Below are positions 25,116-53,591 of a DNA stretch of 64,000 bases, piece by piece. A model generated the notes under the pieces. The model saw nothing but the letters and a program-made list of their open reading frames with translations. It was not told the origin of the DNA and searched no databases. The stretch covers positions 9,281 through 73,280 of the forward strand of contig CALVON010000022.1 of the NCBI GenBank assembly GCA_944350315.1, written 5' to 3'. The position numbers and the translations under genes are program-made. How positions within the stretch are numbered: the stretch's first letter is position 1; every line of letters begins with the position of its first letter. The stretch comes from an uncultured Bacilli bacterium (GTDB lineage: Bacteria; Bacillota_I; Bacilli_A; RF39; UBA660).

Positions 25116-25126
25116 ATAACCTCCAA

Positions 25127-28507: not shown

Positions 28508-28552
28508 TTTTCACCTTAATAAAATATATGTTATTATTTTTAAAATATGCTT

Positions 28553-29008: not shown

Positions 29009-29017
29009 TTTTTCCTC

Positions 29018-30640: not shown

Positions 30641-31029
30641 TACTTATCACTCATTTCTAAAAGATATATATAGGTGTTTTCTGATCCTTCTATTTTATAT
30701 GTTATTTTTATGTAGTTATCTTTTATAATCATTTCTGTTGTTTTTATATCTATATAGATGCTATATTTAAAATTTTTTAAATAATATTCTGTTTTATTTA
30801 CTTTATTTAATTGATACTTTATAACATGCTTTATTTCTTCGTTTTCTCTTATCATATTTATTGTTTCTTGTTTTATTTCTATATTTATTTTGTCATTGTC
30901 AACAATATAACTAATTTTGTTATTTTTTTGCAAACCATAAGTATCAATATTAATTTTCGTTTTATCAGTTAAATTCTTTAAATATCCTGTTAGTTTTACT
31001 TTAATAAAAACACCTTCATAAGAATTCAT
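30640..31029 (-). CDS. DUF1934 (YwiB-like) protein
   Basis: 129-aa ORF directly upstream of argS with overlapping stop/start, as for ywiB-argS in Bacilli. Assignment rests mainly on synteny. Confidence 0.5.
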   Translation of the reverse strand: MNSYEGVFIKVKLTGYLKNLTDKTKINIDTYGLQKNNKISYIVDNDKINIEIKQETINMIRENEEIKHVIKYQLNKVNKTEYYLKNFKYSIYIDIKTTEMIIKDNYIKITYKIEGSENTYIYLLEMSDK

Positions 31030-31158
31030 TAGACATTATATCATAAGTTATATAAAAATAGAACTCATATTTTTATTTTTTTTAGAAATAATAAATATAG
31101 ATGTTATATGTATTAATAAATTATGCTTTTTCCTTTTATTGAAAGGTTGGTTAAATCT

Positions 31159-33123: not shown

Positions 33124-33127
33124 TAAA

Positions 33128-33156
33128 AAAATATGTAATTATTAGTTACATATTTT
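33128..33156. terminator. Bidirectional terminator between convergent PBP and parB/noc-like genes
   Basis: AAATATGTAA-TTATTAG-TTACATATTT hairpin flanked by A and T runs. Confidence 0.55.
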
Positions 33157-34597
33157 ATAATTCTATTATAATACAGTGACCTGTATCATTATTATAAAGT
33201 TTATATTGAATTTGATTTTGATTTAAAAATTCTGTTACTTTAGTTAAATTATTTGTTGGTTCTTGTGTATTAGTTGTTACAGGAACTTCATAATTTGTTA
33301 AATCTGAAACTTGAGTCTGTGGTTCATTTTGATTTGGCTGTGTTTGAGTTTCAGATATAGAAAATAGTGGTGTATCTTGAACTATATTTTCTTGTATTGG
33401 TTGTTCTATGTTTGGCACATTTACAACTTCTTGGTTGAATAGCGGTGTATCTTGTGTACTTTGTTGTGAAGTATTTAAATTTTGATTAGCACTAACTTGT
33501 GAATTAATATCTTGATTTGACTGTTCTATATTTTGTTTTGGCATTTGATCCGCTTGATTTAAAGATGGTTCTTGTGGTGGTATAGTCTGTTGTGGTTCTT
33601 GTACTGAATTATTTACACCAATATTAAAATCTGGAATTGGATTTGTTGTAGAAAAATCAAATAATGGTTGTGTTTGTTCAATATTTTGCATAGATTGATT
33701 ATCTTGATTTTGTATGCCTGGTTGTGAAGACGGTTGCATAGGAGTTACATTTTGTGTCAATGATTCTCCTACTGGATTAGCCGTAGGCATTACTGTTTCA
33801 TTTATTGGTTGAGAATTAATACTTTGCATATTTAAAGTATTTAATGAGGCACTATTTGTTGGGTTCATTTGAGCATTATAGTTTGGAAAAAAGTTTCCAT
33901 TATTCATATTATCACTTTCCTTTTCTTCTTTTTTTGTTTCTTTACTACCAATTGAATTCATTATGTTACTAATAGTGGTTTCAATTGGAATTTTTTCATT
34001 ATTTTGTTTTTTAATAATTTCATTTAGTTCTTTAACAGATAATTTTTCATTAATTATTCTTTCTAACAATAATAATTTTTTTTCATTATCCAAAACACAT
34101 AATAGACTTCTAGCATGCCTTTCACTAATTTGTTGATTATTAAGCGCTTCTTTGATTTCTTTTGGTAATGTTAACAATCTTAATTTATTTGCTATTGTTG
34201 ATTGAGATTTTCCAATTTTATCTCCTAAATCTTTTTGTGTAACATTCGTAAGCTCTATTATTTGTTTAATAGATTCGGCTTCTTCAAGTGGGGTTAAATT
34301 TTCTCTTTGTAAATTTTCTATTAATGCCATTTCTGCCATTTTTATATCTTCAATATTCTTTATAATTGCCGGAACTTTTTTTAGGCCAATTTTTCTAGCA
34401 GCACGCCATCTTCTTTCTCCTGCTATTATTTCATATTTATCATTTGTTTTTCTTACTAATATTGGATTTATTATTCCATATTCTTTAATTGATTTAGCAA
34501 GACTATCTAATGATTCTTCATTAAATTCCTTCCTAGGTTGGTATTTATTTGGCATTAACTTATCTACATCGATTTCTATTATTTTTTCCTCTTGCAA
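33155..34597 (-). CDS. ParB/Noc-family CTP-switch DNA-binding protein with a Noc-type recognition helix and a long Q/N/P-rich C-terminal extension
   Basis: ParB N-domain boxes (YQPRK, GERRWRAA). HTH GKSQSTIANKLRLLTLP...ISERHARSLL. TTG start after AGAGGTGG, with an in-frame TAA 15 nt upstream. Residues ~215-450 are low complexity. The gene sits downstream of rsmG, the noc position in B. subtilis. Confidence 0.85.
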   Translation of the reverse strand: MQEEKIIEIDVDKLMPNKYQPRKEFNEESLDSLAKSIKEYGIINPILVRKTNDKYEIIAGERRWRAARKIGLKKVPAIIKNIEDIKMAEMALIENLQRENLTPLEEAESIKQIIELTNVTQKDLGDKIGKSQSTIANKLRLLTLPKEIKEALNNQQISERHARSLLCVLDNEKKLLLLERIINEKLSVKELNEIIKKQNNEKIPIETTISNIMNSIGSKETKKEEKESDNMNNGNFFPNYNAQMNPTNSASLNTLNMQSINSQPINETVMPTANPVGESLTQNVTPMQPSSQPGIQNQDNQSMQNIEQTQPLFDFSTTNPIPDFNIGVNNSVQEPQQTIPPQEPSLNQADQMPKQNIEQSNQDINSQVSANQNLNTSQQSTQDTPLFNQEVVNVPNIEQPIQENIVQDTPLFSISETQTQPNQNEPQTQVSDLTNYEVPVTTNTQEPTNNLTKVTEFLNQNQIQYKLYNNDTGHCIIIEL

Positions 34598-34691
34598 TAT
34601 ACCACCTCTTTATTCTATATATATAATACATTATATTTTTTTTTTTTTCAATGTTTTTTATATATTATTTTTTTATTGAACTATTTTTTGT

Positions 34692-35396
34692 CTACATTAT
34701 ATCATTTTTTTTGATTTGAGAATACTGTCTTGGGTACTTCTTTGCAGTAACATTATATTTTTCGACTTTGTATATTGTTCTTAAACTATTTTCAGATGGT
34801 AATTGAAATTGAATTATTGTTTCATTTTTTAATGATAATTTTTTGTAGTATTTATCAATATTCTTCATTTCATCAGTAATATTTGACTTTAAGGCAATAA
34901 ATGTGCCATTTACTTTTAACATAGGAATAGAGTATTCTAAAAGATGTTTTAATGGTGCTACTGCTCTTGATGTAACAATATCATATTTTTCACGATTTTC
35001 TTTAGAATAAACTTCTGCTCGTTTATTAATTATTTTTACTTTTTCTAATTGTAATTCTTCTACTATTTTTGTTAAAAATATACATTTTTTTGTTGTTGAA
35101 TCTAGTAAAGTAACATCTAATTTTGGAAAAAATATTTTTAAAACAATCCCTGGAAATCCAGCACCTGTTCCTACATCTATTAGTGATTGGTTATCTAAAT
35201 CAACTATTTTTGTTATAGTTAATGAATCAAAAAAATGTTTTAAAAAGACTTCTTTTTTATCTGTTATAGCTGTTAAGTTATATTTTTTATTCTCTGTATA
35301 TAGAATTTCATAGTATTTTTCTAATTTTTGAAGCATTTCTTCTGTGTATTTAATATTTAATTTTTTTATTTCATTAATAAATTGTTCTTTATTCAT
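34692..35396 (-). CDS. rsmG: 16S rRNA (guanine527-N7)-methyltransferase RsmG (GidB)
   Basis: SAM-binding motif DVGTGAGFPG. Synteny mnmE-mnmG-rsmG. Confidence 0.9.
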   Translation of the reverse strand: MNKEQFINEIKKLNIKYTEEMLQKLEKYYEILYTENKKYNLTAITDKKEVFLKHFFDSLTITKIVDLDNQSLIDVGTGAGFPGIVLKIFFPKLDVTLLDSTTKKCIFLTKIVEELQLEKVKIINKRAEVYSKENREKYDIVTSRAVAPLKHLLEYSIPMLKVNGTFIALKSNITDEMKNIDKYYKKLSLKNETIIQFQLPSENSLRTIYKVEKYNVTAKKYPRQYSQIKKNDIM

Positions 35397-37260
35397 TGTA
35401 TTTCTTCCTTAAATATACTAATAATATTGAAATATCCGATGGATTGACACCACTTATTCTTAGTGCTTGGCCAATTGTTGTTGGATTTATTTTTGATAAT
35501 TTTTGTCTCGCTTCACTTGCTAAATTGGGAATTAATTCATAGTTAATATCTTTTGGTATTTTCTTTTCTTCTTGTTTTAGCATTTTTTCGGCTTCTTTAT
35601 TTATTTTATTTATATAACCTGAATATTTTATTTCTATCTCTACTTGTTCCATTACATCATCTAGATATATTTCTTTAATAATATTTAATTTTTTTAAAAT
35701 GTTTATATCTATTTCTGTTCTTTTTAGTAAATCATATAACGTAATTGAATCTTTAATTGGAGCACTTTTTATTGCTTTTAACATACTATTAACATTTGTT
35801 GTAGGATTTAATTTATTTTCTTTTAAATACTTTGAAAATAAATCAATCTCTTTTAGTTTATGCTGAAATTTTTGATAACGTGGTTCTTTTATTAATCCTA
35901 CATCATAACCATATTTTGTTAATCTAATATCTGCATTATCATGTCTTAAAAGTAAACGATATTCTGCTCTTGAAGTTAACATTCTGTATGGTTCTGTTGT
36001 TCCTTTTGTTACTAAATCATCAATTAATACACCAATATAGGCTTCATTTCTTTTTAAAATCAATGGTTCTTTATTGTCGATTGCTAAGGCTGCGTTTATT
36101 CCCGCAATAATTCCTTGGCCAGCGGCTTCTTCATAACCACTTGTTCCATTTATTTGACCTGCTGTATATAAATTTTTTAGAATTTTAGTTTCTAGTGATC
36201 TAGTAACTTGAGTAGGGGAAATAGCATCGTATTCTATCGCATAAGCATATTTTGTAATAATTGCATTTTTCATTCCTGGTAATGAATGAACCATTTTTTC
36301 TTGAACATCTCTTGGCATGGATGTTGAAAATCCTTGGAGATACATATCGTCATAATAAATACTTTCTGGTTCAATAAATAATTGGTGTCTTTCTTTATCA
36401 GAAAATCTTACTATTTTATCTTCAATAGATGGACAATATCTTGGACCTACCGTTCCTTCTGTTACATAACCGCCGTACATAGCAGATTTATTTAAATTTT
36501 CTAAAATTATTTTCTTAGTTAAATCAGTAGTATAAATTAAATGACATGGTATCTGTTTATTCGTATCATAAGTCATTTGTTCTTCAGTATTAAAACAATA
36601 ACATTCTTTATCTCCTAATTCTTCTTTTGTTTCTAAGAAATTAATTGTTGATTTTTTAATTCTTTGAGGAGTTCCTGTTTTTAATCTTAAAATATTAAAA
36701 CCATATTGTTTTAATTTATCAGATAAATATAGAGATGGTTTTTCATCGTGGGGACCACTTCTTTTTCTTTCATCTCCAATTAATATATCTGATTTTAAAT
36801 ATGTTCCAGTAGTTAAAATTACTTTTTTACTTAATATTTTTGTATTGTCAAATAAAATAACACCCCGTACTTCTTTATTTTCAACAATTAAATCTTCTAC
36901 CATCGATTCTAATAATGTTAAATTTTCTTGATTTTCTAGTGTTTTTAACATTTCTTTGGGATATGTTACTTTATCGACTTGTGCTCTTAGTGATCTAACA
37001 GCAGGACCTTTGGATGAATTTAACATTTTCATTTGAAGAAACGTTTTATCTGCTATTTTTCCCATTTCGCCACCTAAAGCATCTATTTCACGAACGATAA
37101 TTCCTTTGGCAGATCCTCCAATAGATGGATTACATGGTAGACTTGCGACATTTTTTAAATTTGCAGTTATCAATAAAGTTTTTTTACCTATTCTTGCTGA
37201 TGCTAAAGCTGCTTCACATCCAGCATGACCAGCTCCTACTACAATTATATCATAATTCAT
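35389..37260 (-). CDS. mnmG: tRNA uridine 5-carboxymethylaminomethyl modification enzyme MnmG (GidA)
   Basis: FAD motif YDIIVVGAGHAGCEAA at the N-terminus. Start set at MNYDII (37260). Confidence 0.95.
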   Translation of the reverse strand: MNYDIIVVGAGHAGCEAALASARIGKKTLLITANLKNVASLPCNPSIGGSAKGIIVREIDALGGEMGKIADKTFLQMKMLNSSKGPAVRSLRAQVDKVTYPKEMLKTLENQENLTLLESMVEDLIVENKEVRGVILFDNTKILSKKVILTTGTYLKSDILIGDERKRSGPHDEKPSLYLSDKLKQYGFNILRLKTGTPQRIKKSTINFLETKEELGDKECYCFNTEEQMTYDTNKQIPCHLIYTTDLTKKIILENLNKSAMYGGYVTEGTVGPRYCPSIEDKIVRFSDKERHQLFIEPESIYYDDMYLQGFSTSMPRDVQEKMVHSLPGMKNAIITKYAYAIEYDAISPTQVTRSLETKILKNLYTAGQINGTSGYEEAAGQGIIAGINAALAIDNKEPLILKRNEAYIGVLIDDLVTKGTTEPYRMLTSRAEYRLLLRHDNADIRLTKYGYDVGLIKEPRYQKFQHKLKEIDLFSKYLKENKLNPTTNVNSMLKAIKSAPIKDSITLYDLLKRTEIDINILKKLNIIKEIYLDDVMEQVEIEIKYSGYINKINKEAEKMLKQEEKKIPKDINYELIPNLASEARQKLSKINPTTIGQALRISGVNPSDISILLVYLRKKYNE

Positions 37261-37268
37261 TTTATCAC

Positions 37269-38609
37269 TTACTTTCCTAAACAAAATCTAGAAAATATTT
37301 CATCTATTAATTCTTCTTTATAGGTTTTTCCAATTATTTCTCCTAAAATATTCCAACATTCTTTTAAATCTAATTCAATCATATCAATTGGATATTTTTT
37401 AATGTTATTAAGACTTTTTTCTATGCTTTCTTTAGATTTTTTTAATAATGAAATACTTCTAGCACTACTTAAATATGTTAAATCGTTTGTTTCTATTTGT
37501 TCTAAATTAAATATCTCTATTATTTTTTGTTTCAAACTTTCTAGTCCAATATTTTCTTTTATACTAATTTTGATAACTTCGTTTTCTGATATTTCTAGAT
37601 TATTTTTTAAATCTATTTTGTTTATTACAACTATATGTTTTTTATTTTTTATTTGATTTAAAATTTCTATGTCTTCTTTAGTTAATTTTTCATTATTATT
37701 TAATAAATATATTATTAAATCTGATTTCTTTATTATTTCATAACTTTTGTCTACTCCTATTTGTTCAACAATATTATCTGTTTTTCTTATTCCAGCTGTA
37801 TCAATTATATTACAGACTATTCCATTTAATATAAATTTTCCTTCGACAATATCTCTTGTTGTTCCTTCAATATCGGTAACAATTGCCTTATCTTCTTCAA
37901 TCAAATAATTTAAAAGGCTACTTTTTCCAACGTTTGGGCGTCCAATTATTCCTATATTTATACCTTCTTTAATAATTTTTCCTGATTCTGATTTTTTTAT
38001 TATTTCATCGATATTTTCTTGTATTTCTTTTAATTTTGGATATATTTTTTTATTTGTTAATACTTCAATATCTTCGTATTCAGGATAATCGATATTTACT
38101 TCGATGTTACTGATTATTTCTAATAATTTTTGGCGAAGGTTTTCAATAAGATTTGAAACATTTCCTGTTAATTGATTAATTGATAATTTTCTTCCTACCT
38201 CTGTTTTGGCTTCAATTAAATTCATTATTCCTTCTGCTTGTGTTAGATCAATGCGTCCATTTAAGAAGGCTCTTTTGGTAAATTCTCCTGGTTCTGCTAA
38301 TCTAGCACCATTTAATAATAATAGTTCTAAGACTTTATTTGTAGTAATTATCCCTCCATGACAATTTATTTCTACAACATTTTCTTTTGTGAATGTTTTT
38401 GGAGCTAACATTATACTTATTAAAACTTCATCAATTATTTGATTTTTATCAATTATATGACCGTAATGAATTGTATGAGTTTTAGCATCTTTTATATTTT
38501 TATCAAATATTTTATTAACTATTTTTATTGCTTCTGGACCACTTACTCTAATTATTGAAATAGCTCCTACACCTAAAGTTGTCGAAATGGCTGCAATTGT
38601 ATCTTCCAT
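37269..38609 (-). CDS. mnmE: tRNA modification GTPase MnmE (TrmE)
   Basis: G-domain motifs GRPNVGKSS and DTAG. C-terminal CLGK (CxGK) motif. Confidence 0.95.
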   Translation of the reverse strand: MEDTIAAISTTLGVGAISIIRVSGPEAIKIVNKIFDKNIKDAKTHTIHYGHIIDKNQIIDEVLISIMLAPKTFTKENVVEINCHGGIITTNKVLELLLLNGARLAEPGEFTKRAFLNGRIDLTQAEGIMNLIEAKTEVGRKLSINQLTGNVSNLIENLRQKLLEIISNIEVNIDYPEYEDIEVLTNKKIYPKLKEIQENIDEIIKKSESGKIIKEGINIGIIGRPNVGKSSLLNYLIEEDKAIVTDIEGTTRDIVEGKFILNGIVCNIIDTAGIRKTDNIVEQIGVDKSYEIIKKSDLIIYLLNNNEKLTKEDIEILNQIKNKKHIVVINKIDLKNNLEISENEVIKISIKENIGLESLKQKIIEIFNLEQIETNDLTYLSSARSISLLKKSKESIEKSLNNIKKYPIDMIELDLKECWNILGEIIGKTYKEELIDEIFSRFCLGK

Positions 38610-38674
38610 ATTTATTTACTCCTTTTAAATAATTTTTTAAATTTTATATAAAAAAGATATAATTTTTTATATCT

Positions 38675-39283
38675 TTATATTTCTTTTGGCTTGATAACGA
38701 CACATCTATTTGGTTCTTCGCCAGTAGATTCAGTATATACATATTTATTATCTGCTAAGACACTATGAACAATTCTTCTTTCATAAGAATTCATACTATC
38801 AAGTTTTGTTTCAAATTTTGTTCTAGCAACTTCTTTTGCAACTTTTTTTGCTAAGTATTCTATGTTATGAATTTTTTTATCTTTATAATTTTCTACATCA
38901 AGAACGATACTAACATAATGATTTATTTTATTATTAATGATTTGTCTAATAATTGTTTGAATTGCTTCTAATGTTTTACCATTTTTTCCAATTAATAGAG
39001 CATTGTGATCTGAAAATATTTTTATAGTAATATTTTCTTCTCTTCTTCTTATTTCTAAATTAGCGGTTAATCCCATAAGTTTAATTATTTCATTAACATT
39101 TTCTTTTATTTCATCAATTAAATCATTATAATCAATTACCTCTATTTTAACATTTTTTTTAATAATACTATTTTTTTCCTCTAATATATTGATTATCATA
39201 TTATTTTCTGATATTTTTAATTCTTTGGTTGCTTGTTCGATTGCTTCTTCTTTAGTCTTGCCATTATAAATATATTTTTTCAT
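38675..39283 (-). CDS. jag: Jag/KhpB RNA-binding protein (Jag_N, KH, R3H domains)
   Basis: Synteny downstream of yidC. KH-like IGKNGKTLEAIQ and R3H-like ERRIVHSVL motifs. Start at MKKYIY overlaps the yidC stop by 1 nt (TAATG). Confidence 0.85.
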   Translation of the reverse strand: MKKYIYNGKTKEEAIEQATKELKISENNMIINILEEKNSIIKKNVKIEVIDYNDLIDEIKENVNEIIKLMGLTANLEIRRREENITIKIFSDHNALLIGKNGKTLEAIQTIIRQIINNKINHYVSIVLDVENYKDKKIHNIEYLAKKVAKEVARTKFETKLDSMNSYERRIVHSVLADNKYVYTESTGEEPNRCVVIKPKEI

Positions 39284-40200
39284 TATTTTACCTTCTTTCT
39301 CTCTACTAAAATATTTTGAATTATGGTAAATATATTTGATGTTATCCAATAAATTCCAACAGCGGATGATATAGTGAATGAGCTGTATGTAATTATTGCT
39401 ATCATAAAATATAGCATATATTTCATATTAATTCCTTGATTAGGATTTATTGTCTGATCTTTTAATGTTTTTTTGAAAGAAACTAAAGTTGCTAAAAAGA
39501 TTAATAAAACTAAAAGTATATATACATATTCTCCATTCATAATTCCAACCCATGGAGTTTTTCCTAAATTGAAGAAAAAGAGATTATCTTCAAATATGGC
39601 AGGAGTTCTATTTATTGCTTCATAAAATGCTATTAATAAAGGAATTTGAATAAATGCTAGAAGGCAACCTGAAATAGGGTTTATTTTATATTTTTGATAT
39701 ATTAACAACATTTCTTGTGCTTTTCTATTTTGATCTTCTGGTGTTGTTTTATTTGCATATTTTTTTTCTAATTTAGCTAATTCTGGTTGAGCTTTTTTTA
39801 TAAGCTCTGATTGCATGGCTGTTTTTTTAGTAAATGGGTATAGTAATAATCTTATTATTAAACATGTTACTACTATTGATAGGCCATAATTATTTAAAAT
39901 ATTTCCTATTTTTATTATTACCCATGCTAATGGTTTTACAAATAAACTTGTCCACAATCCTTCATAATTTGAAAGAGGAGTGAATTCATTACAAGTTGGT
40001 AATTTATCAATATCTATATTATATTTTTCATATAATTCTATTGTTGAAGATTCTGTTGGTTGACAGATAATATTTTCTGTTAATACTTGTCCTGTTTCTT
40101 CATTATGAACTATTTTTTTACCATCTTTTAGAGTTTTGGTACATCCGGTTAAAAGAAATAAAATAAGGATAACTAAAATTATTTTTTTGTTTTTTTTCAT
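39283..40200 (-). CDS. yidC: Membrane protein insertase YidC/SpoIIIJ (lipoprotein type)
   Basis: Lipobox LLTGC. Conserved YidC core (PLAWVI..., KYKINPISGCLLAFIQIPLLIAFY). Confidence 0.9.
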   Translation of the reverse strand: MKKNKKIILVILILFLLTGCTKTLKDGKKIVHNEETGQVLTENIICQPTESSTIELYEKYNIDIDKLPTCNEFTPLSNYEGLWTSLFVKPLAWVIIKIGNILNNYGLSIVVTCLIIRLLLYPFTKKTAMQSELIKKAQPELAKLEKKYANKTTPEDQNRKAQEMLLIYQKYKINPISGCLLAFIQIPLLIAFYEAINRTPAIFEDNLFFFNLGKTPWVGIMNGEYVYILLVLLIFLATLVSFKKTLKDQTINPNQGINMKYMLYFMIAIITYSSFTISSAVGIYWITSNIFTIIQNILVERKKVK

Positions 40201-40524
40201 TTAATTTCTCACTTTCTTAATTAATTGTAGTAATTCTTCTTTTAATGAATTATATTCTAGATTTTTTGCAGCTTCTTTTATTATTATAACATAACTATTG
40301 CCTTTTTGTATATTAAATTTATTGGTCATAATAATATTTTTTAGTTGGCGTTTTATTTTATTTCTTTGATATGCTTTTCCTATTTTTTTTGGTACTGTTA
40401 TACCAAATAAAGTTTTTTCCGTCTTTTGATAATATATAGAAAAATAGATGTTTTTAACACTTTTCTTTTTACTTATAATTTCACTGAATGTTTTACTATC
40501 TTTTATTATGTTTTCTTTATTCAT
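40201..40524 (-). CDS. rnpA: Ribonuclease P protein component
   Basis: 107-aa basic protein with an RNR-like motif (AYQRNKIKRQLK) between rpmH and yidC. Confidence 0.9.
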   Translation of the reverse strand: MNKENIIKDSKTFSEIISKKKSVKNIYFSIYYQKTEKTLFGITVPKKIGKAYQRNKIKRQLKNIIMTNKFNIQKGNSYVIIIKEAAKNLEYNSLKEELLQLIKKVRN

Positions 40525-40838: not shown

Positions 40839-42599
40839 ATGTTTGAGAAAATTTTATCAATTACAAAAAATTATGCTATTGTTAAAATTATAAATAATAT
40901 TAATGATGACATATTAAATTATAATGTTATTCTTGAAGATAATTATAAAAAAATTTTAGGTGAAATTGATGAGATTATTAACGATGAAGTAAAAATTTCA
41001 TTTTTAGGTGAATTTATTAATGATAGATTTTATAGTGGAATAATTAGAAGACCTTCTTTATCTTCTACAGTTAGAATTATTAACAAACAAGAATTAGGAG
41101 AATTAGTTGGTGATAATGATAGTAGAACTATGATTCTTGGTCTTAGTCCTTTGTATAATAATTATCCAATAAAGATAAATATTAATGAAATGTTTAGTAA
41201 TCATATCGCTATTTTTGGAAATACAGGTTCAGGTAAGACTTGCGGTGTAGCAAGAATTATTCAAAATTTATTTAATATGAAAGATAAAGTTCCTTTTAAT
41301 GGAAATATATTTATATTTAATAATACTTCTGAATATGATTCCGCTTTTAGAGAAATTAATAAAATTAATAGTAATTTTAATTATAAATTGTATACAACCG
41401 ATAAAAGTAATTCTGATGGTGAAGAGATAAAGATTCCTTTATGGATTATGAGTGCTGATGATTATGCTAATTTATTAGATGTTACTGAATTTTTTCAAAT
41501 TAACATAATTGAAAAAATGTTAAGTATTGTTTCTATTTTTGCTAGAAATGATGAATATGCTAATAAATATAAAAATCATTTAATTGCTAAGGCAATAATT
41601 TCCGTTTTATATTCCAATCAGGTTCCTGCAAAAATAAGGGATCAAATTTTTAACATTTTACAAGACTGTTATACGAATGAAATTAATTTAGATGCTGAGG
41701 TTCCAGGAATAGGATATACTAGAGAATTTAGAAAATGTTTTGACATAGATAATAATGGTGATTTTGTAGAGAGAATATTAGTTACTAAATATATTCAAAG
41801 TTTTATTGTTAAAAATGAAAATTGGAATGAAGATTATGTTCCTATTTATTTTAATTTAGATCAATTAGAAAGTGCTTTGAATTTTACTCTAATCAGTGAA
41901 GGATTATTATTAAACGAAAAGTCTTATAGTGAAGCAATCGCTTTAAAAGTTAAATTACACTCTATAAACAATAGTTCAAATAAAAGATTTTTTGAAGTTA
42001 ATAATTTTATTTCGACTGAACAATTTATTAATTCTTTATTAACTACTAAAAATAATGGTAGGGCTCAAATTATAAATTTTGTTTTAGAGGATATTGATGA
42101 TCGTTTTGCAAAATCTTTGGTAAAAATATTATCAAGAATATTATTCAATTTTGTAAAAAAAATACAACCTAGAGGTGCTTTTCCAATTAATATTATGCTA
42201 GAAGAAGCACACAGATATGTTCAAAAAGATAGAGATACAGATATTTTAGGATATAATATTTTTGATAGAATTGCTAAAGAAGGAAGAAAATTTGGGGTAA
42301 TTATGAGTCTGATTTCTCAAAGACCTACAGAATTATCAGAAGTTGTTTTATCTCAATGTTCTAATTTTATTATTTTTAAATTAAATCATCCTAGTGATTT
42401 AGAATATATAAAGAAGATGGTACCAAATATTAGTTCTGATGTTATTGAAAAACAAAAATCCTTACAATCTGGAACTTGCGTTGTTTTTGGTAGAATAATG
42501 AGAATACCAATGATTGTTAAAATGCAAATGCCTAATCCAGAACCTCAAAGTTCAAATGCTTCTATATATGATAAATGGATGGTAGAACAAAAATATTAA
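40839..42599 (+). CDS. HerA/DUF87-like P-loop ATPase (HAS-barrel + FtsK/HerA-type ATPase), orphan
   Basis: 586 aa. Walker A FGNTGSGKT, Walker B-like INIMLEEAHRYV, and SLISQRPTELSEVVLSQCSNFIIFKL typical of DUF87/HerA. Extended -10 TGTTATAAT lies about 30 nt upstream. No NurA, SIR2 or nuclease partner adjacent. Confidence 0.7.
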   Translation: MFEKILSITKNYAIVKIINNINDDILNYNVILEDNYKKILGEIDEIINDEVKISFLGEFINDRFYSGIIRRPSLSSTVRIINKQELGELVGDNDSRTMILGLSPLYNNYPIKININEMFSNHIAIFGNTGSGKTCGVARIIQNLFNMKDKVPFNGNIFIFNNTSEYDSAFREINKINSNFNYKLYTTDKSNSDGEEIKIPLWIMSADDYANLLDVTEFFQINIIEKMLSIVSIFARNDEYANKYKNHLIAKAIISVLYSNQVPAKIRDQIFNILQDCYTNEINLDAEVPGIGYTREFRKCFDIDNNGDFVERILVTKYIQSFIVKNENWNEDYVPIYFNLDQLESALNFTLISEGLLLNEKSYSEAIALKVKLHSINNSSNKRFFEVNNFISTEQFINSLLTTKNNGRAQIINFVLEDIDDRFAKSLVKILSRILFNFVKKIQPRGAFPINIMLEEAHRYVQKDRDTDILGYNIFDRIAKEGRKFGVIMSLISQRPTELSEVVLSQCSNFIIFKLNHPSDLEYIKKMVPNISSDVIEKQKSLQSGTCVVFGRIMRIPMIVKMQMPNPEPQSSNASIYDKWMVEQKY

Positions 42600-42610: not shown

Positions 42611-42626
42611 TATTTCCCGGGAAATA
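42611..42626. promoter_or_regulatory. Perfect Noc-binding-site (NBS)-type palindrome TATTTCCCGGGAAATA
   Basis: 16-bp perfect palindrome identical to the published NBS consensus (ATTTCCCGGGAAAT core). The only CCCGGG in the 64 kb that I could find. Followed by a GGGAAAT half-site repeat and T6, so it may also act as the terminator of the herA-like gene. Confidence 0.6.
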
Positions 42627-42646: not shown

Positions 42647-42875
42647 TTATCAACAAAACTTGTTTGTTTTTTTTACTTATCAACAAGCACTGTTGATTTT
42701 TTTTATTCTATCAACAGGCATTGTTTATAACTTTTAATTACTTTTTCAACAAATTCTTATTTATCAACATGTTATGACACTTGTTGATAATTTTTTCAAC
42801 AAAAATAAAATTATATATAAATTTGTTGAAAACTCTTTTAATTACTTTATTTATATGGTATTATATTGTTGAAAA
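42647..42875. promoter_or_regulatory. oriC part 1: DnaA-box cluster upstream of dnaA
   Basis: Perfect TTATCAACA at 42647, 42677 and 42761 (+) and 42782 (-, TGTTGATAA). One-mismatch boxes at 42708, 42743 and 42793 (+) and 42824 and 42867 (-). Confidence 0.85.
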
Positions 42876-44370: not shown

Positions 44371-44462
44371 TTATCAACAGAGAATGTTGATATTTAAGAC
44401 CTTTATATATATGTATTTATATAAGTTATCAACAGTTTCAACAACTATAATAATAGTAATAA
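44371..44462. promoter_or_regulatory. oriC part 2: DnaA boxes plus DnaA-trio-like repeats in the dnaA-dnaN spacer
   Basis: TTATCAACA at 44371 and 44426, TGTTGATAT at 44385 (-), GTTTCAACA at 44435. These are followed by TAA-TAA-TAG-TAA-TAA (44448-44462) and AT-rich DNA. Confidence 0.7.
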
Positions 44463-45778: not shown

Positions 45779-46228
45779 ATGTGCGAAATTGATTTATCAA
45801 CAGTTATGTTGATAGGAATTGATGATTATAATACTAAAATTATTAGTTATGAAAAAGAAGAAGTAATTAATAAAAATTCAAAAGAATTAATTAATTTATC
45901 ATGTAAATTTTTTGGTAGTAGTTTAAATGATAAGATTAGTGTAACAAAAAGATTAATAAATATTTCTTCAAAATCGCCAATTATTATAGAGGAATCTAGA
46001 AATATTATTTTTTTTCCATTAAAATCAACTAGAGAAAAAAATAATATATGGATATCTTTTAATAATTTAGAAAAGTATGAGAAAAATAATGATAATACAA
46101 TTTTATATTTTAAATGTGGAAAAATAGTTAAATTAAATTTTTCTTACTACATAATAGATAACCAAGTAACTAGAAGCTTAATTTTAGATTATGAATTGAA
46201 TAAAAGAAAAAAAAGTTTAGAAAAATAG
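45779..46228 (+). CDS. comK: ComK-family competence transcription factor (short form, 149 aa)
   Basis: By-eye alignment to B. subtilis ComK: SCKFFGSS vs SCRFFGSS, SKSPIIIEESRNIIFFPLKS vs SHKPPIMVDPSNQIFLFPTLS, NIWISF vs GWISH, IIDNQVTRS vs FENQVYRT. RBS AAGGAGGGGG. Confidence 0.75.
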   Translation: MCEIDLSTVMLIGIDDYNTKIISYEKEEVINKNSKELINLSCKFFGSSLNDKISVTKRLINISSKSPIIIEESRNIIFFPLKSTREKNNIWISFNNLEKYEKNNDNTILYFKCGKIVKLNFSYYIIDNQVTRSLILDYELNKRKKSLEK

Positions 46229-49408: not shown

Positions 49409-51913
49409 ATGAATGAAAATAATAACGGACAAATGTTTGATAAAAACAATAATGATAATAATTTAAATAATATTTATAATGGAACTTATCATGAAAGGGA
49501 TAGTTTAACAGAAAATGATATTGTATCAGAGGTTGAAAATTCTTTTTTAGATTATTCTATGAGTGTTATTACTTCTCGTGCCATTCCTGATTTAAGAGAT
49601 GGATTAAAGCCTGTTCATAGGCGTATTTTATGGTCAATGTATGAAGAAGGAAATACGCCTGATAAGCCACATAAAAAATCTGCTACTACAGTAGGATATG
49701 TTATGGGTCATTATCATCCACATGGTGATAGTTCTATTTATGATGCTATGGTAAGATTAGCTCAAAATTTTAATCAAAGATATATGCTTGTTGATGGACA
49801 CGGTAATTTTGGTAATATTGAAGGTGATGGAGCTGCCGCATATCGTTATACAGAGGCAAGATTATCTAAAATTTCTTTGGAATTGCTTAGAGATATTAAC
49901 AAAAATACTGTTGATATGGATGATAATTTTGATGAGACTAGTAAAGAACCTAAAGTTTTACCTAGTAGATTTCCTAACGTTTTAGTAAATGGCTCAATGG
50001 GGATTGCTGTTGGTATGGCTACAAATATACCACCACATAATTTAGGTGAGGTTATTGATGGTTGTGTTGCTTATATCGATAATCCTGATATTGATACTTT
50101 AGGTTTAATGAATTATATTAAAGGTCCTGATTTTCCTACTGGTGGTATTATTTTGGGTAATTCTGGTATTAGAAAAGCTTATGAAACTGGTAGAGGATCA
50201 ATTACTATTAGGAGTAGAGCGGAAATTGAAGAACATAACAGTCATAATACTATTGTTATTACTGAGGTTCCATATGGCGTGAATACAATGGAATTAAAGA
50301 ACAAGGTTGCAGAATTAGTTAGAGATAAGGTTATAGATGGAATTTCTGATTATCATACTGATTTAAAAGATGGTGTTAAAATAACTATAACTTTAAAAAG
50401 AGATGCTAATCCTCAGGTTGTTTTAAATAATTTATATAAGCATACTAACTTTCAAATTCAATATGGTATTATATTTTTGATGATTGATGGTATGACTCCA
50501 AGAACTTTACCTCTTAAGGATATTATTGTTAAGTATATTGATTATCAAAAAGAAGTAATTATAAGAAGAACAAAATTTGATTTAGATAAAGATGAAAAAA
50601 GAGTTCATATATTAGAAGGTTATAAGATAGCTCAAGATAATATTGATGAGGTTATAAAAATAATTAAAGAGGCAAAAACAGATACAATTGCAAAGGAAAA
50701 TTTAATTAGCAGGTTTAATTTATCTGAAGTTCAAACCGATGCTATTTTGGAGTTAAAGTTGCGTCGTTTAACTGGTTTAGAGAGAGATAAAATAGAGGCT
50801 GAATTAAATAATTTACTATTAGAAATTGATGAATTAAAATCTATTTTAGCTTCTGAGGAAAAGGTTTTAAATATTATTAAATCCGAATTAACTGAAATTA
50901 AGAATAAGTATTCTGACGAAAGAAGAACGCACATTGATATGACAGCTGTTGATTATATAGATGATGAGAATTTGATTCCAAGGGAAAATATTGTTATAAC
51001 TTTAACTAAAAAGGGGTATATTAAGAGAATACCTGTTGATACATATAAAATTCAGCACCGTGGTGGTGTTGGTATTAAAGGTATGTCAATTAATGAGGAA
51101 GATTTTGTAGAGCAAATTATTAATTGTTGTACACATGATTATATTTTATTTTTTACAAATAAAGGAAAGGTTTATCGAGTTAAGGGTTATGAAATTCCTG
51201 AATATAGTAGGCAATCTAAAGGATTACCAATTATTAATTTATTAAATTTAGAGTCTGGTGAATATGTTGCTTCAATATTGAATGGTTCTAGTAATGATGG
51301 TTATAAGTTCTTAGTTTTTGCTACTAAAAATGGTTTGATTAAGCGTACTGATATTTCTGAATTTCATAGTATTAGGGCTAATGGTAAGAAATTTATTACT
51401 TTGCGCGTTGATGATGAGCTTATTTCTGTAAAAAATACTGATGGTGAAAGTGATATTTTGATGGCTTCTTCTAATGGTAGGATGGTAAGATTTTCCGAGA
51501 AATTGATTAGATCTATGGGTCGTGGTGCTTCTGGTATAAGAGGTATTAATTTGGATGGTAGTATTCTTGTTGGTATGGAAATTGCTAAAGATAATTTAGA
51601 TGTATTAGTTGTTACCGAGAATGGCTATGGAAAAAGAACTCCTATTAGTGAGTATCGTGTTACTAATAGAGGTGGTAAGGGAGTTAAAACTTTAAATATT
51701 ACTGAAAAGAATGGCTCTATTACTGCTTTTAAGACTGTTGATAATAAAAAAGATATTATTATTGTCACTAACGAGGGAATTATTATAAGATTAGCTGTTG
51801 ATAAAATTTCTTCGATGAGCAGGGTTACTCAAGGTGTAAAACTTATAAATTTGCGTGAGGGTCAAAAGGTTAGTTCAATTTCAATAGTAGATTCTGATAT
51901 TATTGAAAGTTAA
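49409..51913 (+). CDS. gyrA: DNA gyrase subunit A
   Basis: Active-site region AAAYRYTEARL and QRDR-like HPHGDSSIYDAMVR. About 40 aa of Asn-rich N-terminal extension. Confidence 0.97.
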   Translation: MNENNNGQMFDKNNNDNNLNNIYNGTYHERDSLTENDIVSEVENSFLDYSMSVITSRAIPDLRDGLKPVHRRILWSMYEEGNTPDKPHKKSATTVGYVMGHYHPHGDSSIYDAMVRLAQNFNQRYMLVDGHGNFGNIEGDGAAAYRYTEARLSKISLELLRDINKNTVDMDDNFDETSKEPKVLPSRFPNVLVNGSMGIAVGMATNIPPHNLGEVIDGCVAYIDNPDIDTLGLMNYIKGPDFPTGGIILGNSGIRKAYETGRGSITIRSRAEIEEHNSHNTIVITEVPYGVNTMELKNKVAELVRDKVIDGISDYHTDLKDGVKITITLKRDANPQVVLNNLYKHTNFQIQYGIIFLMIDGMTPRTLPLKDIIVKYIDYQKEVIIRRTKFDLDKDEKRVHILEGYKIAQDNIDEVIKIIKEAKTDTIAKENLISRFNLSEVQTDAILELKLRRLTGLERDKIEAELNNLLLEIDELKSILASEEKVLNIIKSELTEIKNKYSDERRTHIDMTAVDYIDDENLIPRENIVITLTKKGYIKRIPVDTYKIQHRGGVGIKGMSINEEDFVEQIINCCTHDYILFFTNKGKVYRVKGYEIPEYSRQSKGLPIINLLNLESGEYVASILNGSSNDGYKFLVFATKNGLIKRTDISEFHSIRANGKKFITLRVDDELISVKNTDGESDILMASSNGRMVRFSEKLIRSMGRGASGIRGINLDGSILVGMEIAKDNLDVLVVTENGYGKRTPISEYRVTNRGGKGVKTLNITEKNGSITAFKTVDNKKDIIIVTNEGIIIRLAVDKISSMSRVTQGVKLINLREGQKVSSISIVDSDIIES

Positions 51914-51933
51914 AAAGATTTATTTATTATTTG

Positions 51934-51975
51934 AACTCAATTATAATGTTCCACGTGGAACATTATAATTGAGTT
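51934..51975. promoter_or_regulatory. parS-1 (core 51947-51962) in a perfect 42-bp palindrome; also the gyrA terminator
   Basis: AACTCAATTATAATGTTCCAC|GTGGAACATTATAATTGAGTT followed by TTTTTTATTTTTTTTT. Confidence 0.85.
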
Positions 51976-52180
51976 TTTTATTTTTTTTTATAAAGAAATT
52001 TAAAGAATATTTATGTTAATAATTTATTATATTTATGTTTTTATATGTTGTAATATTTAATTTTTATATTTAATATTGTTTATATTATTATAATATTAGT
52101 TTATTTATATTCTGTTAGATATTATTATAGTTAATTTATTATCTTTATTTAATTTATTATAATGTGAAAATATATTATTC

Positions 52181-52340
52181 AAAAAAATTATTTTAGTTGT
52201 CAATTGTTAAATAATTATTTATGTGAATTACAATGTTCCACGTGGAACATTGTAATTTAAATTTTATTATTACAAATTTTGTTTATAAAATGTTTATATA
52301 TAAAGATTGTAATATTAAATTCATAATAAAATAATTATTT
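52181..52340 (+). repeat. Direct repeat unit A (~150 bp) containing parS-2
   Basis: Aligns by eye with 52826-52980. The central ~75 bp is near-identical (TGAATTACAATGTTCCACGTG[G/A]AACATTGTAATTTAAATTTTATTATTA...). Shared AAAAAAATTATTTTA start and ATTAAATT(C/T)ATAATAAAATAAT end. Confidence 0.7.
52226..52257. promoter_or_regulatory. parS-2 (core 52234-52249) in a perfect 32-bp palindrome
   Basis: AATTACAATGTTCCAC|GTGGAACATTGTAATT. Confidence 0.85.
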
Positions 52341-52359
52341 TATTTATATATATTTTCTT

Positions 52360-52379
52360 AATGTTCCACGTGGAACATT
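52360..52379. promoter_or_regulatory. parS-3 (core 52362-52377) in a perfect 20-bp palindrome
   Basis: AATGTTCCAC|GTGGAACATT. Confidence 0.85.
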
Positions 52380-52540
52380 CCAGTTGAAATTTTTTTCTCT
52401 AAAGAGTAAAAAAAATATTATATTATTTACAGTTGATTAAGTATTATTTTAGTTGTTTTATTATATATATTTAGTAAATAGTATATATTTTATACTATAT
52501 TTATTTAAATGCCGTGTTTTTACAATTCATGTAATATTAG

Positions 52541-52568
52541 TTATAATGTTCCACGTGGAACATTATAA
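52541..52568. promoter_or_regulatory. parS-4 (core 52547-52562) in a perfect 28-bp palindrome
   Basis: TTATAATGTTCCAC|GTGGAACATTATAA. Confidence 0.85.
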
Positions 52569-52610
52569 AATGCAGATAAAAATTTTTAATAAGTTATATT
52601 GAATTTATTA

Positions 52611-52639
52611 TTGCGTTTTTTGATATTTTAGTATATAAT
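52611..52639 (+). promoter_or_regulatory. Sigma-A-type promoter of ffs
   Basis: TTGCGT (-35), 17-nt spacer, TATAAT (-10). The predicted start at about 52646 coincides with the 5' end of the SRP RNA helix. Confidence 0.5.
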
Positions 52640-52645
52640 TATGTT

Positions 52646-52716
52646 GTGCAACAATAATATAGAAATCAAGTCAGGATCGGAAGATAGCAGCTTTAACTAT
52701 TAATTATTGTGTGCAC
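52646..52716 (+). ncRNA. ffs: Small (4.5S-like, ~71 nt) signal recognition particle RNA
   Basis: Domain IV motif AAGUCAGGAUCGGAAGAUAGCAGCUU (compare GUCAGGUCCGGAAGGAAGCAGC) with a GGAA tetraloop closed by AUC/GAU. Closing helix GUGCAACAAUAAU / AUUAUUGUGUGCAC, followed by T5. Position upstream of tadA-dnaX approximates the B. subtilis tadA-scr-dnaX region, although scr lies between tadA and dnaX there. Confidence 0.75.
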
Positions 52717-52748
52717 TTTTTATATGTTCCACGTGGAACATATAAAAA
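52717..52748. promoter_or_regulatory. parS-5 (core 52725-52740) in a perfect 32-bp palindrome abutting the ffs 3' end
   Basis: TTTTTATATGTTCCAC|GTGGAACATATAAAAA. Confidence 0.85.
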
Positions 52749-52825
52749 TAAACGTCAATTAATATTTTTTAATTAATTTATTTAAAATTATTATTATGTG
52801 TATTTAAATTGTTATAATATAAAAT

Positions 52826-52980
52826 AAAAAAATTATTTTAATTATTAAATTGATATTTATATGAATTACAATGTTCCACGTGAAACATTGTAATTTAAAT
52901 TTTATTATTATAATTCTTGTTTATTACAGGTTGATGTATAGAAAATATAGTATTAAATTTATAATAAAATAATATATAAT
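52826..52980 (+). repeat. Direct repeat unit B (~150 bp) containing parS-6
   Basis: Partner of 52181-52340. Confidence 0.7.
52864..52895. promoter_or_regulatory. parS-6 (core 52872-52887, TGTTCCACGTGAAACA)
   Basis: AATTACAATGTTCCAC|GTGAAACATTGTAATT. One arm mismatch yields the asymmetric B. subtilis-type parS. Confidence 0.85.
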
Positions 52981-53048
52981 ATTTGTAAAATATGTATAAC
53001 ATTTTTTTTGTTGTGTTAAATTTGTGCTTTTAGATTTTATAAATATAT

Positions 53049-53080
53049 TTATTTAATGTTCCACGTGAAACATTAAATAA
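53049..53080. promoter_or_regulatory. parS-7 (core 53057-53072, TGTTCCACGTGAAACA)
   Basis: TTATTTAATGTTCCAC|GTGAAACATTAAATAA. One arm mismatch. Confidence 0.85.
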
Positions 53081-53162: not shown

Positions 53163-53591
53163 ATGAATTATGAATTTATTAATAAAATAATTTCTTTGGC
53201 TGAAGAGGCTTATAAATTAGATGAAATTCCTGTTGGTGCAGTAGTTGTGTTAAATAATCAAATAATAGGTTTTGGTATAAATAATAGAAATAAAAATTCT
53301 AGTGTTATTGGCCATGCAGAAATATCTGCTATTGAGATGGCATGTAGGAAGATTGGTGATTGGCGTTTAGAAAATTGTGAGATGTATGTTACTTTGTCAC
53401 CTTGTATGATGTGCACTGGAGCAATTGTTGATAGTAGAATTAAAAAAGTATATTATTTATGTGATAGAACAAATGTTTGTTTTAATGCAAGCAATTATAT
53501 TAATTTACATAAGATTAATGATATGGAATTATTAAGTAGATATATGAAATTATTAAAATTATTTTTTGAAAATAAAAGAAATAAGGGATAA
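53163..53591 (+). CDS. tadA: tRNA adenosine(34) deaminase TadA
   Basis: CDA motifs GHAEISAIE and SPCMMCTGAI. Synteny with dnaX. Confidence 0.85.
   Translation: MNYEFINKIISLAEEAYKLDEIPVGAVVVLNNQIIGFGINNRNKNSSVIGHAEISAIEMACRKIGDWRLENCEMYVTLSPCMMCTGAIVDSRIKKVYYLCDRTNVCFNASNYINLHKINDMELLSRYMKLLKLFFENKRNKG

Follow-up and report, generated by a model that had tools for sequence, protein, structure and literature searches.

In a stretch of 64,000 nucleotides from an uncultured Bacilli bacterium (the window), the tract between gyrA and tadA carries seven exact parS sites, and we consider it likely that this tract is the origin-proximal centromere of the chromosome, situated some 9 kb rightward of oriC and served by a canonical ParB that would be encoded outside the window. 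The same cluster is kept at the same spot in about 80 related gut Bacilli, which argues that it is a real and essentially ordinary chromosomal centromere.

parS sites in the window and in related genomes

Scanning the window with the parS consensus TGTTNCACGTGNAACA returned seven exact matches in 1.1 kb just 3' of gyrA and none elsewhere; relaxing the scan to three mismatches or fewer added one unrelated match only, at position 9790. All seven are exact instances of TGTTNCACGTGAAACA, the 16-bp palindrome by which chromosomal parS is recognized. Five of them read TGTTCCACGTGGAACA (sites 1 to 5: 51947–51962, 52234–52249, 52362–52377, 52547–52562 and 52725–52740), which is the parS of Pseudomonas (PMC7022226), and two read TGTTCCACGTGAAACA (sites 6 and 7: 52872–52887 and 53057–53072), which, as a sequence-only reading of this DNA had stated, is the parS within the B. 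subtilis parB/spo0J gene (PMC4333373); both variants are thus experimentally established parS sequences. The consecutive spacings are 287, 128, 185, 178, 147 and 185 bp, at a density of 6 sites per kb, and the positions and spacings given in that reading were all exact. Its judgement that the array is not due to chance also stands: 100 shuffles that kept the window's dinucleotide composition yielded no parS match at all, and a hand calculation from the base composition (25.7% G+C) gives an expectation of about 1e-4 chance matches per 64 kb.

The array is bordered on the left by gyrA (49409–51913, + strand), a conserved border whose stop codon lies 34 nt before site 1, and on the right by the tRNA adenosine deaminase gene tadA (53163–53591, + strand), which begins 91 nt after site 7 and is followed by dnaX, ybaB and recR. 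The longest open reading frame between gyrA and tadA is 49 aa, so the earlier statement that no frame reaches 60 aa holds, but the tract is not wholly non-coding, since an SRP RNA gene lies inside it. We rejected the small frames of 33–49 aa as genes: two start within parS sites, and we found no support for any. The best promoter-like match of the tract (52519–52547) lies at site 4, which adjoins its -10 hexamer, and is weak evidence. The parS sites are not DnaA boxes, with which they agree at only 6 of 9 positions, nor is the tract oriC, because the DnaA-box clusters flank dnaA instead: four box variants (TTATCAACA) lie upstream of dnaA at 42647–42790 and two further boxes at 44371–44434. The origin marked by these clusters is about 9.2 kb from site 1, in agreement with the proposal of a centromere-like cluster near oriC. 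The description of the array as plasmid-style, on the other hand, does not hold for this genome. Tandem Repeats Finder reported no parS-bearing tandem repeat in the window, the spacing is irregular (128–287 bp), and the sole larger duplication in the array is a 134-nt unit (52840–52973), containing site 6, which duplicates 52202–52335 with 85% identity.

For comparison we assembled 80 relatives from gut 'uncultured Bacilli/Tenericutes' assemblies, with GyrA proteins 69–86% identical, and examined the 10-kb flanks of gyrA in each; together with the window these loci comprise 1.58 Mb. Complete genomes among the relatives are reduced, at 1.3–1.5 Mb. Exact parS sites are present in 77 of the 80, in 1–12 copies, and 67 have three or more. 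Every one of the 379 sites in the relatives falls 12–2116 bp downstream of gyrA, and none was found outside the gyrA-dnaX zone in the other ~1.4 Mb of their sequence. This comparison of the gyrA-tadA spacer had been proposed in the sequence-only reading, together with the possibility that the palindrome is a dispersed, REP-like repeat; the absence of any copy from the remaining 62.9 kb of the window, as from those ~1.4 Mb, speaks against the latter. Because the sites are confined to one locus in the sequence examined, we take them to mark a lineage-wide origin-proximal centromere rather than a dispersed repeat. The 16-bp core is invariant across all 379 copies and the flanks are variable; A precedes the core (position -1) in 99% of copies, and T follows it (position +16) in 98%.

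The arrangement of the sites differs among the relatives. Many of their arrays are built of tandem repeats whose periods run from 39 to 126 bp, examples being 39 bp repeated at least 7.7 times (locus L013), 53 bp repeated 11 times (L064) and 126 bp repeated 9 times (L071); in L035 a 38-bp unit is repeated 7 times. A tandem architecture like that of sopC is therefore seen in relatives only, and not in the window.

ParB-family proteins and Noc-binding sites

The window contains a single ParB-family gene, which encodes a Noc-like protein of 480 aa (33155–34597, - strand) beside rsmG. Its recognition residues are Q-K-T-R, including Q173, K179 and R201, and are those of proteins that bind the Noc-binding site (NBS), in which Q173 and R201 are combined with K at 179 or 184. 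Q173 reads A1 of the NBS and R201 reads C6, and deep mutational scanning found R173 to be invariant among parS binders (PMC7383237). Q-K-x-R is present in all 120 close homologues that we aligned and in nearly all of 145 further aligned cluster representatives (of 150 listed). Judged by these residues, the protein is probably not a parS binder. It departs from known Noc proteins in several respects. The reading frame begins 8 residues ahead of the conserved domain and leaves out the membrane-targeting helix at the N-terminal end, whereas the N-terminus of Bacillaceae Noc consists of MKQSFSKLFGL plus a linker; in Noc, this 10-aa amphipathic membrane-targeting sequence is essential for nucleoid occlusion (PMC8429893). 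The protein contains a linker, about 250 aa long, that is rich in N, Q and P, and its score against the NCBIfam Noc model TIGR04285, 269.4 bits, is below the curated cut-off of 315. The gene order rsmG, noc-like gene, PBP gene is kept around the orthologues in relatives L081 and L082.

The 64-kb window encodes no ParB whose recognition helix is of the parS type (R173/G201), and Pfam scans of its non-nested reading frames of at least 90 aa found no ParA domain; these scans set aside gyrA and gyrB, recognized by homology, and frames of 446 and 107 aa, taken as mnmE and rnpA by synteny with L081. A deviant Walker A motif typical of ParA is absent from every reading frame of the window. On both proteins, then, we reach the same result as the sequence-only reading. 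A tblastn search of the window and the 80 loci with the Noc-like protein found only the protein itself. Nor did we find a canonical ParB in the 10-kb flanks of gyrA in the 80 relatives, soj or spo0J in the corresponding flanks (10 kb each) of the noc-like gene in L081 and L082, or a ParB on one short contig reached by an exact-protein match at one end of the window. An exhaustive search of cluster representatives listed 150, all of them Noc-like. In a scan of metagenomes with a back-translated, A+T-biased form of GKSR..[IV][AS]N.[LMI]RLL, the matches listed were mostly marine contigs, none of them recognisably of the clade. One match (L106) was rejected as the clade's ParB, being the ParB of Thomasclavelia/Coprobacillaceae; its best 120 homologues share 69% identity or more with it and do not reach the clade. 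Chromosomal parB genes are usually origin-proximal, and the absence of one from ~45 kb around oriC is therefore unusual.

The window also contains an exact NBS (tATTTCCCGGGAAATa) at 42612–42625, separated by 22 bp from the group of DnaA boxes that precedes dnaA, and an NBS occupies the equivalent oriC-side position in L081 and L082. Exact NBS number 97 in the combined 1.58 Mb of the window and the 80 loci, where 0.003 would be expected. In four relatives (L025, L034, L056 and L078) parS and NBS alternate inside single tandem-repeat units. The two motif classes are nevertheless discrete, comprising 379 pure parS, 96 pure NBS, 3 half-hybrids and no full hybrids, which fits two separate, strictly specific binders. 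From these discrete classes we infer that a separate canonical ParB is encoded elsewhere in the genome.

The composite parS/NBS arrays and the anchor-less Noc paralogue are interesting side products of the analysis. Taken together, an anchor-less Noc subfamily and an NBS on the oriC side suggest that Noc has some function besides tethering to the membrane. It is conceivable, if rather doubtful, that the clade's centromere is a composite element of two ParB paralogues, in which Noc would have been re-purposed from nucleoid occlusion to act as an origin and centromere CTP clamp beside ParB or, at the extreme, in its place. We base this suggestion on the alternation of parS and NBS, the NBS at the oriC DnaA boxes, and the fact that the sole ParB-family gene near the origin encodes a Noc-type protein which has gained a long disordered linker and lost its membrane anchor.

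A related and decidedly unlikely reading is that the Noc-like paralogue is the organism's only ParB-family protein and binds both parS and NBS, the canonical ParB having been lost. Its gene is indeed the sole one of the family in the window and in all loci fetched, the protein resembles a plain ParB clamp in having no membrane anchor (PMC8429893), and the alternating repeat units could be served by one protein of dual specificity. However, residues 173 and 201 are NBS-specific and conserved as such in the homologues described above, and a protein that read positions 1 and 6 loosely would not give discrete motif classes without full hybrids. A canonical ParB encoded outside the window remains our preferred reader of the parS sites.

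Hairpins and the SRP RNA gene

The RNA gene inside the array is that of the bacterial small SRP RNA (ffs/scr; 52637–52732, + strand), which matches Rfam RF00169 at 58.6 bits (gathering score, 40). A permissive Rfam scan of the tract for other known RNAs returned, besides this gene, only two meaningless hairpin matches on site 1. Site 5 overlaps the 3' end of the SRP RNA and is the core of a hairpin with a 14-bp stem (52717–52748) that would form directly 3' of the closing helix of the RNA. About 60 relatives likewise have a homologue of this gene in the gyrA-tadA interval, and of the 60 in which an SRP RNA gene was detected, 23 have a parS between -7 and +24 nt relative to the 3' end of that gene. 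Site 1 is the core of a hairpin with a 20-bp stem (51933–51976) followed by a T run, a terminator-like match, and site 2 lies within an extended palindrome (52224–52259), while the extra flanking palindrome of site 3 is just 2 bp. Our scan for intrinsic terminators picked out sites 1 and 2 but not sites 3–5 and 7; site 6 was not called by the scan, and separate inspection found a T run after its palindrome. In this genome, then, site 1 may also serve as a transcription terminator hairpin for gyrA, and site 2 perhaps as another.

These features could be read to mean that the palindromes are mainly structural hairpins, whether intrinsic terminators, 3' stems of RNAs or REP-like elements, and that the match to parS is incidental. 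We consider this very improbable. In its favour, an extra flanking palindrome of at least 4 bp is present at 32% of the clade's parS sites, compared with about 1% expected, and the first parS lies a median of 35 nt past the gyrA stop codon in the relatives; the hairpins at sites 1, 2 and 5 of the window point the same way. A T run is present, however, at only 8 of 55 gyrA-proximal first sites in the relatives, and we therefore reject a terminator role across the whole clade. A hairpin would drift by compensatory changes, whereas the core is the same in 379 copies from about 80 species. At the two free positions of the core, 5 and 12, C/A and T/G are both common combinations, and C/A would be mismatched in a hairpin; the C-A combinations therefore point to selection on double-stranded half-sites, as in a ParB operator, and not on RNA or DNA pairing. 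Tandem arrays of 7–11 copies at 38–53-bp spacing (L013, L035 and L064) would make no sense as terminators, and no copy lies outside the gyrA-dnaX locus in the sequence examined. That the sites are relics, persisting by inertia or tandem-repeat dynamics after the loss of ParB from the lineage, is the least probable reading of all: neither ParB nor ParA was found near the origin and the genomes are reduced, but 14 specified bases kept exactly in 379 copies, in genomes of 25% G+C with GyrA only 69–86% identical, require purifying selection.

Proposed function and comparison with known systems

In the centromere reading that we favour, a canonical Spo0J-type ParB (R173/G201), encoded outside the window, would nucleate on palindromes of 16–18 bp (A-TGTTNCACGTGNAACA-T), close into CTP-bound sliding clamps and spread across the gyrA-ffs-tadA-dnaX region. 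The seven parS would be high-affinity loading sites, and their close setting would be expected to increase both the loading rate and the local concentration of ParB. Since no ParA is encoded near the origin, as in the ParA-less systems of S. pneumoniae and S. aureus, the main output is probably SMC-ScpAB loading and origin organisation rather than ParA-driven transport; ParA-less ParB-parS-SMC systems are documented (PMC7333895). The array would turn over fast by local and tandem duplication, yet stay anchored between gyrA and ffs/tadA throughout the clade.

The analysis places a predicted chromosome segregation and SMC-loading site in the RF39-like Bacilli, an uncultured gut lineage that is both large and very abundant, and indicates that the spacer from gyrA through ffs to tadA is functional and not junk. 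With one fixed locus compared across ~80 species, the parS arrays form a natural series: they have 1–12 sites, grade from irregular into perfectly tandem, and include or lack interleaved NBS. Why the number of parS sites varies, and what drives their clustering, is an open question in reviews (PMC7333895), on which this series bears.

Among the closest known systems is Spo0J(ParB)-parS of B. subtilis, with which the window shares an identical 16-bp consensus and, in sites 6 and 7, the spo0J-internal parS itself (PMC4333373). Both organisms belong to the Bacilli, have origin-proximal parS and the gene order ffs, tadA, dnaX, ybaB, recR, and carry a Noc paralogue adjoining rsmG. In B. subtilis, however, the parS sites are single, mostly intragenic and spread across hundreds of kb, whereas the window has seven between genes in 1.1 kb. 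Here soj and spo0J do not follow noc, there is no ParA in the origin region, and the array occupies the position after gyrA where Bacillus presumably carries the rRNA operon rrnO.

In S. pneumoniae and S. aureus the parS sites are few and dispersed, not packed in one spacer. These ParA-less systems (PMC7333895) resemble the window in belonging to Bacilli, in combining parS close to oriC with an origin region that has no ParA gene and, for S. aureus, in having Noc as well, but their ParB gene is identified. The Noc-NBS systems of B. subtilis and S. aureus share with our sequences exact NBS palindromes and a Q173/K179/R201 paralogue adjoining rsmG; they differ in that the window's protein has no membrane-targeting sequence (PMC8429893), a long N/Q/P-rich linker and a Noc score below the cut-off, and in that NBS in the relatives are co-arrayed with parS instead of being scattered.

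The sopC centromere of the F plasmid is made up of 12 direct repeats of 43 bp, every one of which contains an inverted repeat of 16 bp (PMC3177203). Like the window it has iterated binding palindromes, and the tandem arrays of the relatives are closely similar to it; the window's own array, by contrast, is irregular, is built on the chromosomal parS and not on the SopB site, has no adjacent sopAB or parAB operon, and lies on a chromosome.

A chromosomal parallel of similar density is M. xanthus, in which 22 parS lie in ~3 kb, ~4 kb upstream of parAB (PMC3899335). This too is a dense, origin-proximal array of near-identical sites, at ~7 per kb compared with 6 in the window, and its consensus, TGTTCCACGTGGAACG, is one base off the window's major variant. 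It belongs to another phylum, and the genome of the window is extremely A+T-rich; the M. xanthus cluster lies beside parAB and its ParB binding was established by gel-shift, whereas the window's array is known from sequence and has no parAB nearby. C. glutamicum has 10 parS in 35 kb, 9 of them intergenic (PMC7083940). Given these two precedents, the contrast with most studied bacteria that the sequence-only reading had drawn was overstated: dense, mostly intergenic clusters of chromosomal parS are already known.

The parS cluster and its place in the origin region

Scanning the window with the pattern TGTTNCACGTGNAACA gave seven matches, five of them exact copies of TGTTCCACGTGGAACA (starting at 51947, 52234, 52362, 52547 and 52725) and two of TGTTCCACGTGAAACA (52872 and 53057), which confirms the positions and the spacings (287, 128, 185, 178, 147 and 185 bp) reported by the sequence-only reading. 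Its argument that the sites are not there by chance also holds: 100 dinucleotide-preserving shuffles of the window contained no match, and a hand calculation at 25.7% G+C, with eight A/T and six G/C positions specified, gives an expectation of about 1e-4 per 64 kb. Permitting up to three mismatches added a single, unrelated match in the window, at 9790. The sites lie between the end of gyrA (51913) and the start of tadA (53163), where the longest ORF is 49 aa. To call this tract non-coding was an overstatement, as it holds the gene for the bacterial small SRP RNA (ffs/scr, 52637-52732, plus strand; Rfam score 58.6 bits, above the gathering threshold of 40). The 3' end of this gene leads straight into parS site 5, which on folding is the core of a hairpin with a 14-bp stem directly 3' of the SRP RNA closing helix; an SRP RNA gene was detected in 60 relatives, and 23 of these have a parS within -7 to +24 nt of its 3' end.

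In gene content the window is a typical Bacilli origin region, with rsmG, mnmG, mnmE, jag, yidC and rnpA on the minus strand; a DUF87/HerA-like ATPase gene, dnaA, dnaN, comK, recF, gyrB and gyrA on the plus strand before the array; and tadA, dnaX, ybaB, recR, holB and more genes as far as mfd after it. Variants of the DnaA box (TTATCAACA) cluster at 42647-42790 and 44371-44434, on either side of dnaA, which places parS site 1 about 9.2 kb from oriC. The earlier interpretation was right in its core, a putative parS centromere cluster by oriC whose cognate ParB is not in view, and at fault in the non-coding label, the plasmid-style comparison and the claim of rarity. Pfam scans of the window's non-nested ORFs of at least 90 aa, leaving aside gyrA and gyrB (recognised by homology) and mnmE and rnpA (assigned via synteny with L081, one of two relatives' loci around the noc-like gene), found no ParA domain, and the deviant Walker A motif that ParA proteins typically carry is absent from all reading frames of the window.

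Several other features of the region were observed. The ATPase (DUF87/HerA-FtsK-like, 586 aa, 40839-42599, plus strand) is encoded between rpmH-rnpA and dnaA, right beside oriC, an unusual position that is kept in two relatives (L081, 1566-3329; L082, 1043-2803). Between dnaN and recF lies a ComK-family gene (PF06338, E = 1e-30; 45779-46228, plus strand), where B. subtilis has the small S4-like gene yaaA (rlbA). GC skew and gene orientation flip at the origin (about 40-43 kb) and also at about 24 kb (1-24364 versus 24450-40524); the leftmost 24 kb is plus-strand with positive skew and would be head-on to a fork leaving oriC, and this second switch points to an inversion or rearrangement close to the origin, or else to a join made in the assembly. 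This reduced genome of 26% G+C has a complete SpoIVA gene (22477-23946, plus strand; its ATPase domain scores 360 bits), which fits the reported mixture of spore-forming species and species that do not form spores in RF39-like orders (PMC10868615).

Conservation, site anatomy and turnover in relatives

Scanning the species representatives of GTDB with GyrA gave 80 loci, each comprising gyrA and up to 10 kb on either side, from uncultured gut 'Bacilli/Tenericutes' assemblies (GyrA identity 69-86%; Clostridium sp. CAG:302, CAG:1193, CAG:594 and CAG:417 among them). Exact parS sites occur in 77 of these loci (1-12 each, median 4; at least three in 67); one of the other three has seven tandem one-mismatch copies, and another breaks off about 130 bp past gyrA. 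Gene order is kept across the comparison: gyrA is followed by the array, which has the SRP RNA gene in it or next to it, and then by tadA and dnaX. Window and loci together contain 379 exact sites, every one of them 12-2116 bp downstream of the end of gyrA, and none was found in the other ~1.4 Mb of this sequence or in the two 20-kb loci around the noc-like gene. A dispersed, REP-like element, which the sequence-only reading had named as one observation that would overturn it, is thus ruled out as far as the available sequence extends. In Clostridium sp. CAG:594 (L036, 14349-14460), three parS lie inside the dnaX coding sequence, where they form a 48-bp coding repeat translated as NVPRET/NVSRET; L047, L050 and L054 are further cases. 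VPRET is also the peptide encoded by the parS inside B. subtilis spo0J.

The 14 specified bases of parS are invariant throughout the clade, and an A at position -1 (99% of sites) together with a T at +16 (98%) extends the element to an effective length of 18 bp. The free positions 5/12 appear as T/A, C/G, C/A or T/G. The C/A pair, which is common and is used by entire arrays in L013, L035 and L045, would mismatch in a hairpin, so the target of selection is the double-stranded half-site and not a folded strand. In 32% of the clade's sites the palindrome reaches 4 bp or more further into the flanks, against about 1% expected. Sites 1 and 2 of the window score as intrinsic terminators; site 1, which lies 34 nt past the gyrA stop codon, has a stem of 20 bp and a T run, and the first parS of the relatives has a median distance of 35 nt from that codon. 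As a T run accompanies only 8 of the 55 relatives' first sites that lie within 100 nt of the gyrA stop, termination is not supported as a general property of parS, although for particular sites in the window a predicted terminator function is plausible.

In the window the array is irregularly spaced. No parS-bearing tandem repeat was reported there by Tandem Repeats Finder, and the sole larger duplication in the array involves 134 nt (52202-52335 and 52840-52973, 85% identical), with sites 2 and 6 in the two copies. Genuine tandem arrays are present in relatives, so the picture of an iterated, plasmid-style centromere suits them and not the window. The array of L013 has a period of 39 bp (7.7 copies, reaching the contig end) and one parS per unit. 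In L025 (12476-13077; 117 bp, range 117-118; 5.2 copies), L034 (12711-13179; 117-118 bp) and L056 (12713-13536; 117-118 bp) each unit carries one parS and one Noc-binding site (NBS), and in L078 (2694-2937; 62 bp; 3.9 copies) one parS and one near-NBS with a single mismatch; these four arrays thus set predicted sites of two ParB paralogues in regular alternation. Spacings of 38, 44, 53, 74 and 126 bp are found in further relatives. The varied periods, and the mixture of 5/12 variants inside single arrays, indicate that the array turns over rapidly by local duplication at a fixed locus.

A Noc-like protein and a second predicted binder

The sole ParB-family gene in the window (33155-34597, minus strand; 480 aa, ParB_N and HTH_ParB) adjoins rsmG. 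Among solved structures its product matches Noc best (203 bits), then Spo0J/ParB (166 bits), and its best NCBIfam family is nucleoid_noc (269 bits, under the cut-off of 315). The helix-turn-helix, GKSQSTIANKLRLLTLP...SERHARS, contains Q173, K179, T184 and R201 (Caulobacter numbering), recognition residues of the NBS type: Q173 reads A1 and R201 reads C6, a single lysine at 179 or 184 is enough, R173 is invariant in parS binders and natural ParBs have G201 (PMC7383237). The sequence-only reading was therefore correct that the window encodes no ParB with a parS-type helix. Q-K-x-R is found in all of the 120 closest homologues. Of 150 listed cluster representatives at 50% identity, 145 further ones were aligned, and nearly all of these have it too.

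The protein has no membrane-targeting helix at its N-terminus, an element required for nucleoid occlusion (PMC8429893); its low-complexity linker, rich in N, Q and P, spans about 250 aa, and its C-terminal domain (...YKLYNNDTGHCIIIEL) is short and conserved. Its subfamily is large and diverse, with at least 150 clusters at 50% identity; the best 150 representatives are 242-798 aa long (median 482), with short N-termini in nearly all. Linkers in the subfamily are N/Q/P-rich and reach about 250 aa or more, and the C-terminal end has a conserved ...HCIIIEL.

The NBS pattern tATTTCCCGGGAAATa has one exact match in the window (ATTTCCCGGGAAAT, 42612-42625; about 1e-4 expected); the 80 loci and the window, 1.58 Mb in all, contain 97 (0.003 expected). 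The window's site falls in the spacer that separates the ATPase gene from dnaA, with the first of four DnaA-box variants 22 bp away. L081 (1499-1512) and L082 (1001-1014) also have an exact NBS in this spacer, an arrangement that recalls, by analogy, the reported control of replication initiation by Noc in S. aureus (PMC5540599). Sorted by positions 1 and 6, the sites comprise 379 pure parS, 96 pure NBS, three half-hybrids and no full hybrids. From two motif classes this distinct, which point to two separate, strictly specific proteins, we infer that a canonical ParB is probably encoded elsewhere in the genome. None was found in the window, within 10 kb of gyrA in either direction in the 80 relatives or, in two relatives, within 10 kb of the noc-like gene on each side; directed searches were negative too, and here the argument has its main gap. 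A centromere that combines ParB with a re-purposed Noc lacking the anchor seems to us a rather unlikely, if conceivable, arrangement.

Proposed function and comparison with known centromeres

Following established ParB biology, ParB dimers would nucleate on the seven parS sites, take up CTP, shut into clamps and slide outward, and several loading sites inside about 1 kb would increase the clamp flux and raise the local concentration. Given that no ParA is encoded near the origin, the array would probably serve to load SMC-ScpAB and to individualise the origin, as is the case in S. pneumoniae and S. aureus, which have no ParA (PMC7333895).

In the literature searched we found no description of an array that stays strictly anchored in the gyrA-ffs-tadA spacer throughout an entire uncultured lineage, of tandem units with both parS and NBS, of a large Noc-like subfamily without the membrane-targeting helix, or of an exact NBS abutting the DnaA boxes of oriC and conserved in three genomes. 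Dense chromosomal parS clusters are themselves well established, so that the window's array has known precedents and its rarity had been overstated. In C. glutamicum 10 parS, of which nine are intergenic, lie within 35 kb (PMC7083940), and up to 20-23 near-origin sites are reviewed for Streptomyces coelicolor and Listeria innocua (PMC7333895). M. xanthus has 22 in about 3 kb (consensus TGTTCCACGTGGAACG), with ParB binding seen by gel shift (PMC3899335), and the window, at 6.2 sites per kb, has about the same density. The iterated sopC centromere of F, 12 copies of 43 bp (PMC3177203), is matched by the tandem arrays of the relatives and not by that of the window.
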